Source of the DNA: a phage
Sequence record: PX104380.1
Strand: one strand, 5' to 3'
DNA: 64,000 nt
This document shows positions 3,355-61,137 of the stretch, piece by piece. The stretch's first letter is position 1, and the number at the start of each line of letters is the position of its first letter. The translations under genes were made by a program, and so were the position numbers. Below the pieces are notes generated by a model that had not been told where the DNA came from, made no database searches, and saw nothing but the letters and a program-made list of their open reading frames with translations.

Positions 3355-3385
3355 ATATAATATCATATCCTGTACCAAAGTAAAC
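3355..3385 (-). promoter_or_regulatory. early-type sigma70 promoter (GTTTAC -35 / ~18 nt / TATA-rich -10)
   Basis: Minus sense GTTTAC-N17/18-TATTAT/ATATAT upstream of ORF 2954-3319. Confidence 0.5.
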
Positions 3386-3387
3386 AA

Positions 3388-3720
3388 TTATTTTACTACT
3401 TTCCAGTGCTGCATGTCAAGTTTACCGACTTTTTTCATCTTCTCAATTAAGCGTTCGGCACGTTGGCGAGCTGTAACATAATACCATTCACCTAATTCAT
3501 TTTGTTCAATTTTTCCAACGATTACTGTATTCAATTCATAAATCCAACCAGTAAAGAAATTATGAACTTGAATTGTAAAGGTGAAATCTGTTCCCATACC
3601 TTCTGTTGTTTCTACTTCAATAATATCACCTTCAACTGCCATTAAGAACCACATAGTTTCATCATATTTACCATTGAAGCATTTAGTTTTAACTGCAGCG
3701 TTCAGATTAATCGTTTTCAT
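3388..3720 (-). CDS. hypothetical protein, 110 aa
   Basis: ORF track; preceded by terminator plus early-type promoter. Confidence 0.5.
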   Translation of the reverse strand: MKTINLNAAVKTKCFNGKYDETMWFLMAVEGDIIEVETTEGMGTDFTFTIQVHNFFTGWIYELNTVIVGKIEQNELGEWYYVTARQRAERLIEKMKKVGKLDMQHWKVVK

Positions 3721-3742
3721 TTTATTCTCCTTTGTTTGTGTA

Positions 3743-3777
3743 AGATAATACTATCACAAAGGAACCATACTGTAAAC
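3743..3777 (-). promoter_or_regulatory. early-type promoter
   Basis: GTTTAC...TAGTAT just downstream of terminator 3797-3825, upstream of ORF 3388-3720. Confidence 0.5.
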
Positions 3778-6166: not shown

Positions 6167-6501
6167 TTCATAATCACCAGATAAGCAGATTTAGCAGTTT
6201 CAACACGATAAATTTCGTGACGAAGTTTAGTTATACTTTTAATAACAGAACTAATTATATTCTGCCCATCTTTAAAGCGGTTTTTCTTGTCAATAAAAAT
6301 TGCGCCAACCATCTTTTTGTGAAGCTCAACTGGATACTTCGTCACAATAATAGCATCATATACAGAAGGATGAATACTATTTACTAGAGTGTCATTCATT
6401 AAAGTTATTCTAATGAACTGTGCTGTTTCAGAGTCAAGCGCTCTATGATCGCCAGTGTCATTTTCAAGACAATTATCAATTATATCAGTTAAATTCATCA
6501 T
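6163..6501 (-). CDS. hypothetical protein, 112 aa
   Basis: ORF track. Confidence 0.5.
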   Translation of the reverse strand: MMNLTDIIDNCLENDTGDHRALDSETAQFIRITLMNDTLVNSIHPSVYDAIIVTKYPVELHKKMVGAIFIDKKNRFKDGQNIISSVIKSITKLRHEIYRVETAKSAYLVIMK

Positions 6502-6737
6502 AGTACGCCATACACCCTTTGTGCTTCAACTAATCCATCAAAATCTAATTTAAGATGCGATATTTGATCGCCATCGCCTGGATTCACAATTACTAATACT
6601 GAACGAGGAGTTTCGGTAATAACACGAACCGATGTTTCAGGAAATCGTTCAGAAACCTTATTTACCAATTCCTGCGCAAATAGCTTAACTTTTTCTTGGA
6701 ATTCTTTAACAGTAATCGGTTTTTCACTTAGCAGCAT
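6498..6737 (-). CDS. hypothetical protein, 79 aa
   Basis: ORF track; early-type promoter upstream. Confidence 0.5.
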   Translation of the reverse strand: MLLSEKPITVKEFQEKVKLFAQELVNKVSERFPETSVRVITETPRSVLVIVNPGDGDQISHLKLDFDGLVEAQRVYGVL

Positions 6738-6763
6738 TTTGTTTTCCTCATTTGTTTGGTAGA

Positions 6764-6796
6764 GCTATAATATCACAACTCTACCGTAAAGTAAAC
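6764..6796 (-). promoter_or_regulatory. early-type promoter
   Basis: GTTTAC-N18-TATTAT upstream of ORF 6498-6737. Confidence 0.5.
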
Positions 6797-7076: not shown

Positions 7077-7269
7077 TTACCTCACATAATTTTCTTCAAG
7101 CCAATCGATAACATCCAAAGCGTTATCAAAAGTTGAACCATCTACTTTATCTTCTGTTTCATAGTCAAGAACATCTAAACCTACTCTTCCATTAACAATA
7201 GGCCATAAACAAAACAGGTATTTCTTTTCTTTTTCAATTTTATCACAAAGATGATAAATCTTTTCTAGA

Positions 7270-21455: not shown

Positions 21456-22109
21456 TCAATACTTACAAGATTTCACAGTTTCAATGAAAACATTTTTAGC
21501 TTTCTGTGAATCAATATTTAAAATTTTTCTATAAGCCTTTAACTTTATAGAATAATTATTCCAGACTAAATTATCAGTCTGTTCATCATGTTTATCAATT
21601 ATATTTAAAAATGAATCAAGCAAAATAAACGTTTCAAACGAAATTATGTTCGACTGAAGCAGTTTAAAAATATAACTTGATTGAACTTTTGGATTATATT
21701 CAAAGATTTCTTTAAAAGCAGAAACTTCAACTTTCTTACTAAAATAATAAATGTTGCGAATATCTTCTTCAAACTTAAATTTAATTTGCTTTAAGCGTCC
21801 GATATATTCACGATAAAACACAAGTGCATCAGCGTCAGAGATATCACCAATCCAAGCATCTTGGTTAGCAACCAAATTACTTATAAAGATTAAAGCAAGT
21901 TCCTTTAATTTATATTTTTCTGATAACTTCTGGAAAAAATACTTATCCCTTCGCTTTTGATAAGCGGCATCAGACACCCGCATGCACCAATTATACTTAA
22001 TAACATCATACTTTCCATTCATATGTTGTTTTATCATTAAGTATAATTTATAAACTGATTTACCATCAATGTATCTTTCACCACCAGCAGGCATGCGGAG
22101 TTTAATCAT
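21456..22109 (-). CDS. 59: gp59 helicase loader, 217 aa
   Basis: 217 aa; position between gene 32 block and gene 33. Confidence 0.85.
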   Translation of the reverse strand: MIKLRMPAGGERYIDGKSVYKLYLMIKQHMNGKYDVIKYNWCMRVSDAAYQKRRDKYFFQKLSEKYKLKELALIFISNLVANQDAWIGDISDADALVFYREYIGRLKQIKFKFEEDIRNIYYFSKKVEVSAFKEIFEYNPKVQSSYIFKLLQSNIISFETFILLDSFLNIIDKHDEQTDNLVWNNYSIKLKAYRKILNIDSQKAKNVFIETVKSCKY

Positions 22110-36979: not shown

Positions 36980-37017
36980 TTTCTAATCTCCGTAATTCTG
37001 TATCAGTAGTTGATAGT

Positions 37018-38997: not shown

Positions 38998-39023
38998 TTT
39001 CTGTTCCTCCGTAGTTGATAGGG

Positions 39024-39055
39024 TAATAGTACCACGGAAGAACAGTCTTGTAAAC
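39024..39055 (-). promoter_or_regulatory. early-type promoter
   Basis: GTTTAC...GGTACTATTACCC; leader plus RBS nearly identical to cassette at 39530. Confidence 0.55.
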
Positions 39056-43795: not shown

Positions 43796-43825
43796 ATTAT
43801 ACCACATCCTTGTGGTAAAGTAAAC
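43796..43825 (-). promoter_or_regulatory. early-type promoter
   Basis: GTTTAC-N18-TATAAT upstream of ORF 43567-43770. Confidence 0.55.
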
Positions 43826-45642
43826 TACTGGCTCATCCATTCTTTACGAAGGTCAGCATTATCTCCCATGAGCATTTCAAAAAGCTCATTCCAGTTCTCA
43901 GGAAGTTTAACAACATCATATACCGGATTTTGAATCATCTCACGATATTCAGATTTTTCCAAAGAGCCAAGTCCCTTAATATAACGGATGCTATGTTTAG
44001 GTAGAGCATCTTTAGCACTCTCATATTCAGCGACTGTATAAAACCATTCTTGTTTTTTACCGACCTGAGCGATGATTACAGGAGTTTTGACAAAGCGAAT
44101 TCTTCCTTGTTCAAACAGTTCTGGCCAATTACTAAAAAATCCGAGCAGAGAAGGATAAATGCTTCCTAGACCATCATGGTCAGCATCGGTCATAATAGCA
44201 ATATTATGATAATTCAAGTTTTCAGCTTTTTCACCAAGAACTAATCCAGTGATTGCGCAAATATCAAACAGTTCTTTGTTTTTAAGCATATCAGCATATG
44301 ACATACCCCAACTGTTGAGAACTTTACCGCGCAATGGATAGCCACCATGAAGTTCTTTATCACGAACATCGATTAAATAACCAATTGCAGAATCACCCTC
44401 AGTCAAGAAAAGAGTAGTGTCAGCATCTTTACCACAAAGATTCGCTTTGATATGTTTATGAACCTTAGCTTTAGAAGCCTTTTTAGCTGCTTTAGTTTCT
44501 GCTGCTTTTTCTGCCGCCAATTTACGAGCCAAGGCAGCTTCAATAATCGGCATTAAAATTGCTTCATTATTTAGAATAGCGCGTGAAATCTTTTTAGCAT
44601 CAAGTTGAATATGACTACGAATTTCGCCAAATGGAGAAGTCAAACGCTCTTTAGTTTGAGAATCAAATCGCATGTTTTTCATATCACGGACAAACATAAC
44701 GATAGTCAAACATTCTTTAACGCGTGCTTTAGTCACATCAATTTTGAACTTACGTTTGATTTGTGGAATAAGGTCTTCACAAATATCATCCATAACACAG
44801 TCAATGTGATGGCCACCATTCTTAGTGTGAATGTTATTCACATAAGTTAATTGACGAAAACCATCCGGTGAACGACCAACCGCAATAGAGCAATTTTCTT
44901 GTTCTTGAACGATAGCATGCTCATCATATTGGCGTGCATATTTCTTAAAATTGCCCTGAACCTTTTTACCATTAAAGGTAAATTGAATATCAGGATAAAC
45001 TACTGCAAGTGTCTGGAGACGATCTAGTGTAATGTCAAGATAAACTTGGGACAGCTCATTAGTTTCAAATGACATAAAATCAGGAATGAAAGTAACACGA
45101 GTTCCTTTCCATTTTCCAGGAATAGTTTCCCATGATTTATTTTCCATGCCATTTGAACAACGAACTACAATATTATTTTGACCATCACCAGTTTCACCGA
45201 CAAACATCACAGAAAAAATGTTTGTCAAACTAGAACCAACACCATTCATACCGCCAGTGACGCGTTCTTTATCATCACCGAAGTTACCACCTGCTTTTGG
45301 AATAGTCCAGGCAGCAACAGGACCAGGAATTTCTTCACCGGTAGGTGTTTTGACCATCGCTTGTGGAATACCGCGACCGTTATCTTCAACTGTTACCTGA
45401 TTATTTTTAATGGTAACATTAATTTTATTCGCGAATTTAAACTTAGTACGAATACCTTCATCTACTGAGTTATCGATAATTTCATCAATAAGCTTAACAA
45501 GACCAGGTACATACTGAACACTTTCCCATTTACCAAACAGAAAGCGCTCATGCATTTCATTAGCAGAAGAGCCAATATACATGCCGCTACGCTTTTTGAT
45601 ATGTTCAATATCGCTCAGAATTTTAATTTCATTCTTAATCAT
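43825..45642 (-). CDS. 39: DNA topoisomerase II large subunit gp39 (GyrB-like), contiguous 605 aa
   Basis: GHKL ATPase N-terminus (IDEIIDNSVDE, GRGIP), TOPRIM region; single uninterrupted ORF. Confidence 0.9.
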   Translation of the reverse strand: MIKNEIKILSDIEHIKKRSGMYIGSSANEMHERFLFGKWESVQYVPGLVKLIDEIIDNSVDEGIRTKFKFANKINVTIKNNQVTVEDNGRGIPQAMVKTPTGEEIPGPVAAWTIPKAGGNFGDDKERVTGGMNGVGSSLTNIFSVMFVGETGDGQNNIVVRCSNGMENKSWETIPGKWKGTRVTFIPDFMSFETNELSQVYLDITLDRLQTLAVVYPDIQFTFNGKKVQGNFKKYARQYDEHAIVQEQENCSIAVGRSPDGFRQLTYVNNIHTKNGGHHIDCVMDDICEDLIPQIKRKFKIDVTKARVKECLTIVMFVRDMKNMRFDSQTKERLTSPFGEIRSHIQLDAKKISRAILNNEAILMPIIEAALARKLAAEKAAETKAAKKASKAKVHKHIKANLCGKDADTTLFLTEGDSAIGYLIDVRDKELHGGYPLRGKVLNSWGMSYADMLKNKELFDICAITGLVLGEKAENLNYHNIAIMTDADHDGLGSIYPSLLGFFSNWPELFEQGRIRFVKTPVIIAQVGKKQEWFYTVAEYESAKDALPKHSIRYIKGLGSLEKSEYREMIQNPVYDVVKLPENWNELFEMLMGDNADLRKEWMSQ

Positions 45643-46529: not shown

Positions 46530-46934
46530 TTATTCCTTAAAGTGTGCTTTCAACATCTGATACAAGGACCATGCTTGTTCATTATTTTCAATAGTAACTT
46601 TCATTACCGGGAATTCTGAGAAATCTTCTATCTGTTCTTGCTCTTCAGAAGCTTGGTATGGATTTTCAACTTCATCAAAGAACCCAGCTTCGTTAGTAGA
46701 GAGCCAGATAAAGTTTTCGTCAAGGATATCACCGCCGGCACAACGTTTGAGTACACCTGTGGATGTCATAATTTTAGTAGGACGCCCAAGATAATCAGCA
46801 TCTAAAATTTTAAAAGGCTCCATACCTAAACGTCGTGCATAGATTCCGTTATCAGTATGGTCTTTAATAAAATTTTCTTGAGCTTGTTTATTTTTAAATT
46901 GATACCATTTATTAACTTCAAATTTAATAGCCAT
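46530..46934 (-). CDS. hypothetical protein, 134 aa
   Basis: ORF track. Confidence 0.5.
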
Positions 46935-47149
46935 TAATAAATTTCCTTCCAGTAAGTTGTGCCGTCTTCAGTAATTTCACGGAATACACCATAAATCGGT
47001 TGTTTATCACCGACTTTCTCATACACATAAACCGAAGTCAAGTGAGTAAACTTAACGGTATGTTCCTTTTGAACCACTACCAAATCTGGATCGAATAATA
47101 CATCTTCAAATTCGTCATTAGTACAGTTCTGAACAATTTTACGTTTCAT
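46934..47149 (-). CDS. hypothetical protein, 71 aa
   Basis: ORF track. Confidence 0.45.
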
Positions 47150-47162
47150 TACAATTTCCTCA

Positions 47163-47432
47163 TTAATTGAACAGCGGAGCGATACGTTTCAGAAGAGTAG
47201 CAGCACCTTTAGCGAATTTTACATCATGAAAAACAGTTTCTTCTTCTGTAACAACTCGAACTTTAATATTTTCACAATCCCAATTTTTACGAACAATCTT
47301 CAAAAGCTGCAGTAAATCTTTACATTCAGCAATATCGATAACACATCCACGAGAATCTTCCATTATCGCACGATAACCGTAAGCCATACCATAATCGTTG
47401 AAAGATTGCTCGATGATAATTAAGTTTTCCAT
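47163..47432 (-). CDS. hypothetical protein, ~89 aa
   Basis: Second ATG at 47432 has GGAG at correct spacing. Confidence 0.45.
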   Translation of the reverse strand: MENLIIIEQSFNDYGMAYGYRAIMEDSRGCVIDIAECKDLLQLLKIVRKNWDCENIKVRVVTEEETVFHDVKFAKGAATLLKRIAPLFN

Positions 47433-47529
47433 TTTATTCTCCAAGTTGTTTTCTGTATCAGTAGTTGATATTGATATAGTACCATAATCAACTACTGATG
47501 TATATAGTTTTATGAAAAAATTTTAAACT

Positions 47530-48027
47530 TTATGCATAGCGAGCTTTGCTGTAGTGTTTAATCCAACTTTCAGGAATGACTTTGTATGTTCCCAAAAATA
47601 CCACGTTGTACAACTTAACACCATCTTCTACCCACTGATCGGTAATGTATGCACACATAGCACGAGTATGATGTTTTTGAACAACCCCTTCCTCATCTTC
47701 AGTAAATTCGAATTCATAAGGAGCAACGAACTTAATAGCTTGACCGAGTTTCCACTTAAAGTCTACACCTACATGTGAAGTATCAATCGTTTCAATTCCT
47801 TTAGCAGGAACAGCTTTCAAAAACGCAGACTCAAGAAATTTCGCACGAACATAGCCAAACTGAGGTTTAGACTTTCCATCTTTAGGAATGATACGCACTT
47901 TTACTTCAGAATCTTCATCTTTAACACCATGTTTAAGCTGAATGCTTACAATTTCGACCAATTTTCCTGCTGCTTTAGAACGGGATTTATCAGATACACG
48001 AGCAATTTCACCAATATTAATAATCAT
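47530..48027 (-). CDS. hypothetical protein, 165 aa; paralog of the next gene
   Basis: C-terminal AYITDQWVEDGVKLYNVVFLG similar to GWVTDQWIEDGVELLNVVHAG of 48104-48649. Confidence 0.5.
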   Translation of the reverse strand: MIINIGEIARVSDKSRSKAAGKLVEIVSIQLKHGVKDEDSEVKVRIIPKDGKSKPQFGYVRAKFLESAFLKAVPAKGIETIDTSHVGVDFKWKLGQAIKFVAPYEFEFTEDEEGVVQKHHTRAMCAYITDQWVEDGVKLYNVVFLGTYKVIPESWIKHYSKARYA

Positions 48028-48071
48028 AGTTATCTCTCACTTGTTAAAAAGATTTTATACTCCACGGGACC

Positions 48072-48101
48072 AGAGTATAATGGTCCCAAGAGTTTGTAAA
48101 C
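48072..48101 (-). promoter_or_regulatory. possible early-type promoter
   Basis: GTTTAC present; -10 less clear (TTATAC/TACTCT); flanking inverted repeat GGGACCA/TGGTCCC. Confidence 0.35.
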
Positions 48102-48103
48102 TA

Positions 48104-48649
48104 TTAATTTAAAATAGCTACCACCGCACTACGAGGTACTACACTAAAATCACCTGCATGAACAACGTTCAGAAGTTCAACACCATCTTCAATCCACTGG
48201 TCTGTTACCCAACCACAGATAGGATTATCAAAAGGACGACGGATAGACACAGCAGCACACAACAGGTCTGTAGGGTCTTGTTCTTCAACTTCTTGGAACA
48301 GGATGAACTCATCTTCATAAACCAGGTTTTTCTTTATTTTGTTATTATCTAACCGGCGACCGTGGATGACGTAAGATTTGTCAAACCACTCACTTTTGGC
48401 AAATTCTTCAACAATAAATTCGCCTTCGCCAAAAACATCAGTCAGAGTTTTATGACCAGAAATCAAGGCATTAGTTTTAATTTTAGGTTCAACCAGTTTG
48501 TAGGTTTTGCCGATTTCAATAGCGATAGTCATAGTAGGTTCCTTAATTTCCAGTGGTTTAACAGGGCATACATAAGTGCTTACAACATCAAAATCAATCA
48601 GTTTAGCTACCGGATTTGGTATGTATTCAGGATTATAATTAAATTTCAT
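48104..48649 (-). CDS. hypothetical protein, 181 aa; paralog of previous gene
   Basis: Shared C-terminal motif with 47530-48027. Confidence 0.5.
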   Translation of the reverse strand: MKFNYNPEYIPNPVAKLIDFDVVSTYVCPVKPLEIKEPTMTIAIEIGKTYKLVEPKIKTNALISGHKTLTDVFGEGEFIVEEFAKSEWFDKSYVIHGRRLDNNKIKKNLVYEDEFILFQEVEEQDPTDLLCAAVSIRRPFDNPICGWVTDQWIEDGVELLNVVHAGDFSVVPRSAVVAILN

Positions 48650-49152: not shown

Positions 49153-49176
49153 TTTATTATCCTCAGTAGCTATGGT

Positions 49177-49209
49177 GTTATAATACCATAACTAACCGAG
49201 GAAGTAAAC
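49177..49209 (-). promoter_or_regulatory. early-type promoter
   Basis: GTTTAC...GGTATTATAAC upstream of ORF 48652-49152. Confidence 0.5.
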
Positions 49210-61104: not shown

Positions 61105-61137
61105 ACTACTATACCATAGTCTTGTCAGCTTGTAAAC
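61105..61137 (-). promoter_or_regulatory. early-type promoter
   Basis: GTTTAC-N18-TATAGT upstream of dmd, overlapping gene 41 stop. Confidence 0.5.

Follow-up and report, generated by a model that had tools for sequence, protein, structure and literature searches.

T4-like phages are already known to embed their early promoters in stem-loops, and they do so widely. In RB49 and phi1, early promoters carry stem-loops (PeSLs) that lie mostly between the -35 and -10 elements or over the -10 (Arbiol et al. 2010, PMC2839356). These stem-loops have been interpreted as acting in termination or attenuation and in recombination, attenuation having been proposed and shown in one case (PMC2839356). PeSLs were later extended to the phage pairs PST/T4 and nt-1/KVP40, where the PST/T4 stem-loops are said to be situated immediately upstream of the promoter (Comeau et al. 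2014, PMC4122927). At the IP locus of T-even phages, the stem-loops that accompany T4 early promoters are weaker, AT-rich and variable in size (Repoila et al. 1994, as summarized in PMC2839356). A further arrangement is known from the T4 genes e, soc, 49 and I-TevI, where hairpins form only in the longer transcripts (PMC3014915), and the accessible part of a preprint on sigma-54 promoters describes a short sequence that lowers downstream expression from read-through transcripts (bioRxiv 10.1101/086108). T4 early transcription is textbook material, yet its early-promoter spacers are commonly regarded as free of constraint. Repeats at early promoters are not mentioned in the accessible portions of the Hinton 2010 review and of Nolan et al. 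2006.

The element considered here is an inverted repeat at 47457-47499, on the minus strand of a 64,000-nt stretch of phage DNA (record PX104380.1; "the window" refers to this whole stretch). Its placement is that of a PeSL: the arms occupy -30 to -18 and +1 to +13 of the predicted promoter, the -10 sits in the loop, and the whole lies within one intergenic cassette. Like the PeSLs, it is part of an intergenic cassette of A/T tract, early promoter, stem-loop, Shine-Dalgarno (SD) sequence and start codon, and in both cases such cassettes are repeated along the early regions beside variable small ORFs. The RB49 stems, however, are G/C-rich (GGGG...CCCC) and accompany near-perfect sigma-70 promoters, whereas the stem at 47457-47499 is AT-rich, is not followed by a U-tract, brackets the -10 and uses the conserved leader as its 3' arm. 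Lacking the G/C-rich (polyG/polyC) stem of the PeSLs, it is of the AT-rich T-even type instead. It shares with the IP-locus elements, as far as the summary of that work describes them, the combination of a T4 early promoter with an AT-rich stem-loop, but it is located in the motB-cef region. With e, soc, 49 and I-TevI it shares a promoter inside the hairpin region and a fold expected only of the longer, upstream-initiated RNA; in those genes, however, the 3' arm overlies the SD or AUG and the embedded promoter belongs to the late or middle class, whereas here the promoter is early and the SD is left uncovered. Insulation at sigma-54 promoters, to judge from the available part of that source, is the same idea in a different promoter class and organism.

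Anatomy of the promoter and its repeat

The region 46900-48200 is best matched by Tequatrovirus (T4/T2-like) phages at 97.7% identity (megablast; 624 phage records matched), and the window evidently derives from a T2-like Tequatrovirus. Its fused gp39 (43825-45642, minus strand) is one 605-aa protein, unsplit in the T2 manner; T4 instead shows the 39/60 split together with the gene 60 bypass. The repeat lies among minus-strand genes that include goF (46530-46934), cef (46934-47149), an 89-aa ORF of unassigned function (phrog_3720; 47163-47432), motB (47530-48027), a motB.1-like gene, motB.2 and dexA, with motB upstream of the element and the 89-aa ORF served by the early promoter. T4 has no intact 89-aa ORF: an internal deletion between near-identical octamers, ATGGAAAA at the start and ATGTAAAA near the end, spares an 11-codon remnant (window 47163-47432 versus T4 6483-6652), and as a result the same early promoter precedes cef in T4. 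Since a query of IMG/VR with the 89-aa protein returned one locus only, the orthologue set for this ORF was drawn from GenBank phages.

The sequence between motB and the 89-aa ORF corresponds to T4's cef promoter and has the features of a T4-type early promoter cassette, all on the minus strand. The -10 hexamer TACTAT (47476-47481) matches the T4 early consensus TAcTAT and is preceded by an extended -10, TGG (TGn; 47482-47484), in line with the consensus cTGTGgTA. At a distance of 17 nt is a degenerate -35, TATACA (47499-47504), where the T4 consensus has TTTACA within GTTTACA, and beyond it an A/T-rich, UP-like tract (AAGTTTAAAATTTTTTCATAAAAC, 47505-47529; A/T tract TAAAATTTTTTCATAAAAC) begins immediately after the motB stop codon. 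Downstream, and in the same orientation, are the SD sequence GGAG (47439-47442), which is separated from the 3' arm by 14 nt and lies within GGAGAATAAAA (47432-47442), and the ATG start codon of the 89-aa ORF (47430-47432). Counting 7 nt on from the -10, transcription would start at the A in position 47469. Read along the sense strand, the layout is TAA(motB stop)-AGTTTAAAATTTTTTCATAAAAC-TATACA-TCAGTAGTTGATTATGG-TACTAT-ATCAAT-ATCAACTACTGAT-ACAGAAAACAACTT-GGAG-AATAAA-ATG.

This assignment is consistent with a weight-matrix profile built from 27 T4 early promoters (-50 to +26), whose consensus is ...TTTcA.AAAgttGTTTACAt...acTGTGgTAcTATa.aacTATcaAcTA and includes cTATcaAcTA. The promoter at 47457-47529 scores 37.8; leave-one-out scoring of the T4 promoters gives a median of 39.5 (range -10.3 to 63.1), and only 7 of 27,924 background positions score as high as 37.8. 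Its -35 does not match GTTTAC(A/T), since ATATACA agrees at 4/6 positions with GTTTAC and at 5/6 with TTTACA, and this weak -35 explains why a generic sigma-70 scan misses the promoter. No MotA box was seen by eye upstream of the -10 in 47457-47529. Promoter and repeat are identical in T4 (T4 6582-6624), where the arms occupy 6612-6624 and 6582-6594 and the -10 occupies 6601-6606, and a promoter feature is absent from GenBank record M89919.

On the plus strand, ATCAGTAGTTGAT at 47457-47469 is matched by its exact reverse complement, ATCAACTACTGAT, at 47487-47499, as found both by reading the sequence and with a repeat finder. The sequence-only reading that preceded this analysis had recognized the perfect 13-bp repeat and placed its first arm correctly, but had put the second at 47486-47498, off by one. 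The arms are perfect over 13 bp and extend imperfectly to 20-nt arms at 85%. In the sense orientation, the 5' arm (ATCAGTAGTTGAT, 47487-47499) lies in the promoter spacer from about -30 to -18, and the 3' arm (ATCAACTACTGAT, 47457-47469) is the conserved T4 early leader motif, at a putative +1 to +13. The 17-nt loop between them (TATGGTACTATATCAAT, 47470-47486) contains the -10 and the extended -10, so that the repeat does bracket the -10 as had been proposed. The upstream arm does not, however, lie where the -35 would be expected, as that reading also had it; it occupies the spacer and has only its first base in common with TATACA. The identification of one arm as a conserved leader motif is borne out by cTATcaAcTA in the T4 early consensus and by an exact second copy behind the motA early promoter, where the arm (37002-37014) and the bases that follow it recur as ATCAACTACTGATACAGAA; the motA early cassette and the 47457-47529 cassette are homologous and align from the A/T tract through the leader.

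Perfect inverted repeats whose arms measure at least 13 bp and whose loops measure 3-40 nt number two in the window, compared with a mean of 0.05 in 60 dinucleotide-preserving shuffles (centre-expansion count). The second of them, AATTATACTTAAT / ATTAAGTATAATT at 21989-22048, has a 34-nt loop and TATAAT in one arm, and apparently lies within coding sequence. The sense RNA is predicted to fold at -23.6 kcal/mol (z = -4.56) into the 13-bp stem, a 2x2 internal loop, a 5-bp inner helix formed within the loop at 47470-47486 (UGGUA/UAUCA, with one G.U pair) and a closing CUA triloop. A scan of 46800-48300 with Rfam 15 covariance models gave no match with E<=1.

Situated 30 nt past the stop codon of motB, and with a T-rich stretch on the plus strand 8 nt after the stem, this stable hairpin might be taken for a canonical intrinsic terminator, either of motB or of plus-strand antisense transcription. 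We consider this highly improbable. There is no U-tract 3' of the hairpin on the sense strand, where ACAGAAAAC follows the stem, and the hairpin is therefore not a canonical intrinsic terminator; only 5 of the 13 stem pairs are G-C, with no runs of G or C, and a terminator scan calls neither strand at 47457-47499. A generic scan likewise found no terminator-like site between motB and its downstream early promoter. Simple masking of the SD is also inapplicable here, since the 3' arm stops at 47457, leaving 14 nt to the SD at 47439-47442. The predicted fold reaches this SD only through a weak outer helix of 7 bp, three of whose pairs are G.U. The sequence around this SD, GGAGAATAAAA, fits the strong RegB cleavage consensus GG*AGRAYARAA (PMC3014915).

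Spacer-leader pairing across T-even early promoters

The shorter repeats previously noticed at four other cassettes are all present: GGTACAGG/CCTGTACC at 3362, GGTAGAG/CTCTACC at 6772, GGGACCA/TGGTCCC in the 48070s and ACAAGACT/AGTCTTGT at 61105. For a broader comparison, early promoters were listed in the window (16), in T4 (30) and in a 40-kb piece of RB69, which belongs to a different genus (17), and the most stable RNA duplex that the 24 nt upstream of the -10 can form with the 45 nt downstream was computed for each promoter with itself and against every other, a design that keeps composition and shared consensus in the control. Own pairs were consistently the more stable, at -11.8 versus -8.6 kcal/mol for cross pairs in the window (permutation p<5e-5), -12.4 versus -8.3 kcal/mol in T4 (p=2e-5) and -11.6 versus -8.4 kcal/mol in RB69 (p=2e-5). 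The 15 T4 promoters outside the part homologous to the window gave the same result (-12.6 versus -8.3 kcal/mol, permutation p=2e-5). The expectation that such repeats would be commoner than chance thus holds: a spacer/leader duplex of -17 kcal/mol or lower occurs in 30% of T4 early promoters versus 1.2% of random positions, and 11 of the 30 T4 promoters fall below the 5th percentile of cross pairs. The duplex at 47457-47499 (-19.3 kcal/mol) is in the 0.4% tail of 4500 random genomic positions.

The position of this pairing is also specific. When -90 to +90 was folded by partition function, the expected number of enclosing pairs peaked exactly on the -10 hexamer, at 11.0 in T4 and 11.7 in RB69, compared with about 3 at -30 and +25. 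Around -60 there is a further, lower peak, which represents upstream terminators. These data show that about a third of the early promoters of T4, the window phage and RB69 hold their -10 in the loop of a predicted spacer/leader hairpin. Repeats that tightly bracket the -10 occur at the T4 ipI, ipII and ipIII promoters, for example CCTAGAATTGTGA/TCACAATTCTAGG at ipIII, and the T4 57B promoter has arms TGATGAGGTA/TACCTCATCA.

From promoter to promoter the arms are unrelated, as in GGTACAGG/CCTGTACC, GGTAGAG/CTCTACC and TAGGGTA/TACCCTA. Furthermore, at promoters orthologous between T4 and RB69 the hairpin enclosing the -10 is kept while the arm sequences differ, with T4 and RB69 values of -22.4 and -21.6 kcal/mol at regB, -17.4 and -16.8 at 57B, -12.1 and -11.1 at ipI, and -19.4 and -14.2 at nrdC.9. 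Pairing is thus kept across genera while sequence changes, which argues for a structure rather than for a shared operator. An operator had been suggested by the sequence-only reading: a dimeric phage or host protein would bind both copies of the leader motif and control the promoter, and a perfect 13-bp dyad over a promoter, with a half-site that is a conserved motif found in single copy at several other early promoters, is what such a site could look like. It is nonetheless improbable here, as the inverted leader motif is found at no other promoter, the repeats of sister promoters have unrelated arms that keep their complementarity, and the half-sites at 47457-47499 are 30 bp apart, centre to centre. 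In addition, the accessible sections of PMC2988021 attribute the shut-off of early promoters to ADP-ribosylation and other mechanisms and describe no operator-binding repressor.

The promoter hairpins fall into two classes, one with a 3' arm that lies over the SD and a helix that includes G.U pairs, and one with a perfect repeat that hugs the -10, to which 47457-47499 belongs. Hairpins of the SD-covering class are much more stable as sense than as antisense RNA (-23.1 versus -13.1 kcal/mol at motB.2, -23.3 versus -15.5 at regB and -21.5 versus -12.3 at T4 166783). Among the 11 strong T4 repeats, 6 are more stable by over 3 kcal/mol as sense RNA and none as antisense, and the sense-minus-antisense difference is -1.75 for own pairs versus -0.82 for cross pairs (p=0.012). 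This bias is partly compositional, however: strong cross pairs are sense-biased too (29 versus 7), so that the sense advantage of own pairs is only suggestive. Since the hairpin at 47457-47499 is perfect, the test is uninformative for it (-19.3 versus -20.3). Promoters with an upstream intrinsic terminator were not poorer in repeats (7 versus 23 promoters, p=0.35), contrary to what a role in read-through RNA would predict.

In the window, the SD is covered by the 3' arm at the sister promoters 39031, 49185 and 3753. Their anti-SD spacers (39001-39045, 49160-49202 and the 3753 cassette at about 3720-3770; examples are CTGTTCTTCCGT/ACGGAGGAACAG and TCCTCGGTTAGTTATGGT/ACCATAGCTACTGAGGA) form helices with G.U pairs that are about 10 kcal/mol more stable as sense than as antisense RNA, and the same design is found at regB in T4 and RB69. 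Two other arrangements were observed along the way. The T4 early promoters at T4 55360 and 146851 share a spacer with a perfect 14-bp palindrome, CATAAAGCTTTATG, which is a stem-loop lying wholly between the -35 and -10 elements. At the motB promoter (window 48066-48087 versus T4 7170-7200), both phages keep the GGGACC/GGTCCC repeat, while the sequence between the arms is TTATACTC here and AGAGTATAAT in T4, indicating that the -10 has been rearranged within a conserved stem.

Conservation and loop inversion

The 77-bp core of the element is identical in 336 of 534 phage records, and the region is at least 95% identical in nearly all of them. Among 12 sampled Tequatrovirus variants there are about 11 distinct changes, none of which falls in the 26 arm bases (the 5' arm at 47487-47499 is identical in all 12): at least 4 are in the A/T tract, 1 is in the internal loop and 6 are in the 14-15 nt linker between the 3' arm and the SD. 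The internal-loop change, in HY01, is 47485 A>G and produces TGTGG, a better extended -10. With changes spread uniformly across some 90 nt, the arms would escape all of them with a probability of about 0.02, although the low diversity of Tequatrovirus weakens this conservation argument. The sampled Tequatrovirus copies all carry the hairpin unchanged, which leaves no covariation to score at 47457-47499. Proteins homologous to the 89-aa product (about 42% identity) are encoded behind an orthologous promoter in Klebsiella phages of the genus Jiaodavirus, where the cassette has a different genomic context and adjoins tRNA genes. The first 9-11 nt of the 5' arm, ACATCAGTAGT, are shared with the -35/spacer of the orthologous promoter in KPV15 (L008 620-660; also L009). 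The leader of the Klebsiella-phage promoter differs and forms no comparable repeat (-6.3 kcal/mol), which makes the repeat at 47457-47499 lineage-specific.

These observations bear on the possibility that the repeat is a neutral by-product, its spacer having become complementary to the leader by chance, by templated (quasipalindrome) mutation or by gene conversion, and having been kept only through the high similarity of Tequatrovirus genomes. Such an origin would fit the near-uniformity of the region, the status of the 3' arm as a family-wide consensus, the presence of 9-11 bases of the 5' arm in a Klebsiella-phage spacer that lacks a strong repeat, and the template-switch events at the element itself that are described below. 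We nevertheless regard it as unlikely, since the promoter-wide enrichment, its replication in the other half of T4 and in RB69, the positioning on the -10 and the covariation between orthologues are hard to explain without selection, and since the arms are free of the polymorphisms found on either side although spacer sequence is normally unconstrained.

One natural isolate carries a different form of the element. In Escherichia phage Pinarejo (PP925831.1, about 445-461), the 17-nt loop is exactly inverted while the arms and flanks are unchanged. In a search with the loop reverse-complemented between unchanged arms, Pinarejo matched at 99% over 104 nt and all other records at about 91%. The two loop orientations are TGGTACTAT and TGATATAGT; the inverted loop in Pinarejo reads TGATATAGT at the same position and spacing and preserves TGn and TAnnnT, so that the promoter may tolerate the inversion. 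A comparable case involves Pe133295, the cassette at window 6758-6785 with its -10 at 6772, where the exact loop between GGTAGAG and CTCTACC is TTGTGATATTATAG. These 14 nt are noted in the T4 RefSeq record as formerly reported as their inverted complement (T4 133293-133321; L007 14293-14321), and the inverted loop is found only in the 1985 T4 record X03007, where it may be either a sequencing error or a stock variant. Overall, inverted loops occur in 1 of 531 records at the 47457-47499 element and 1 of 663 at Pe133295, and none was found among 682 records at the 30.7 promoter.

Template-switch mutations and inversions at quasipalindromes are a mutational mechanism and not a function. We presume that such switching accounts for the exact loop inversions in Pinarejo and X03007. 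The inversions indicate that the arms do interact at the DNA level now and then, if rarely, most simply by template switching. Alternatively, action at the DNA level could be what the repeat is for, with a hairpin or cruciform, or pairing during replication, creating a hot spot for recombination and rearrangement, a role suggested for the shuffling of PeSL cassettes, or else modulating promoter melting. PeSLs do recombine, with crossovers in or beside the stem-loop (PMC2839356), the locus is plastic in that some relatives have the 89-aa ORF and others lack it, two promoters have exactly inverted loops in Pinarejo and X03007, and the 47457-47499 repeat folds as DNA at -11.5 kcal/mol (z = -5.5). 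The inversions are rare, however; the T4 deletion ends at ATGGAAAA/ATGTAAAA, inside the ORF and outside the stem-loop; and loops of 12-35 nt and helices containing G.T pairs make poor cruciforms. T4 endonuclease VII, moreover, cuts cruciforms. A DNA-level role is therefore distinctly unlikely in our judgement. The earlier idea of a cruciform was right in spirit, in that a structure is supported, but the G.U helices, the sense bias and the 12-35 nt loops favour a hairpin in RNA, and we consider the structure more likely to act there than in DNA.

Read-through RNA and the stem-loop

The reading we prefer, with about an even chance of being correct, is that the repeat is a PeSL-like, promoter-embedded stem-loop that folds only in RNA reading through from motB. 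The 5' arm would lie in the spacer between -35 and -10, upstream of the predicted start site, and the 3' arm would form the opening 13 nt of the transcript made from this promoter. RNA initiated at the promoter would lack the 5' arm and so stay open. With no terminator between motB and the element, motB transcripts should cross it and carry both arms, and this read-through RNA would fold into the 13+5 bp hairpin, its loop holding the -10 sequence. Since only read-through RNA would have both arms, the hairpin could serve as a conditional mark of read-through transcripts. The most likely effect would be that read-through is attenuated or paused, or that the 3' end of the motB message is protected after cleavage at the downstream GGAG, with RegB as the cleaving activity; a more general insulation of the downstream cistron is another plausible effect. 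At sister promoters, the same hairpin design would hide the SD.

A more speculative and on balance doubtful extension is that T-even early promoters are self-insulating modules, in which the spacer encodes the antisense of the promoter's own leader or SD. Read-through RNA would fold and hide the leader or SD while promoter-initiated RNA stays open, and for each cistron this would determine the transcripts open to translation and the GGAG sites open to RegB cleavage. The 47457-47499 element would be a tight, non-SD variant of this design, with a quasi-symmetric loop that lets the -10 survive inversion. Self-insulation, if true, could explain how RegB inactivates early mRNAs yet spares longer transcripts with the same sites.

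Several of these features may be new for T-even phages, namely the peak of pairing on the -10 with its replication and covariation across genera, the anti-SD spacers and the loop inversion. The 47457-47499 element itself is the smaller gain, as a clear and well-conserved example with one natural isolate in which the loop is inverted. For phage engineering, moving or reusing such promoters would alter more than initiation. If the hairpins act on read-through RNA, they would be a compact way to free tandem early genes from upstream transcription, and may explain transcript-specific sensitivity to RegB and ribosomes.
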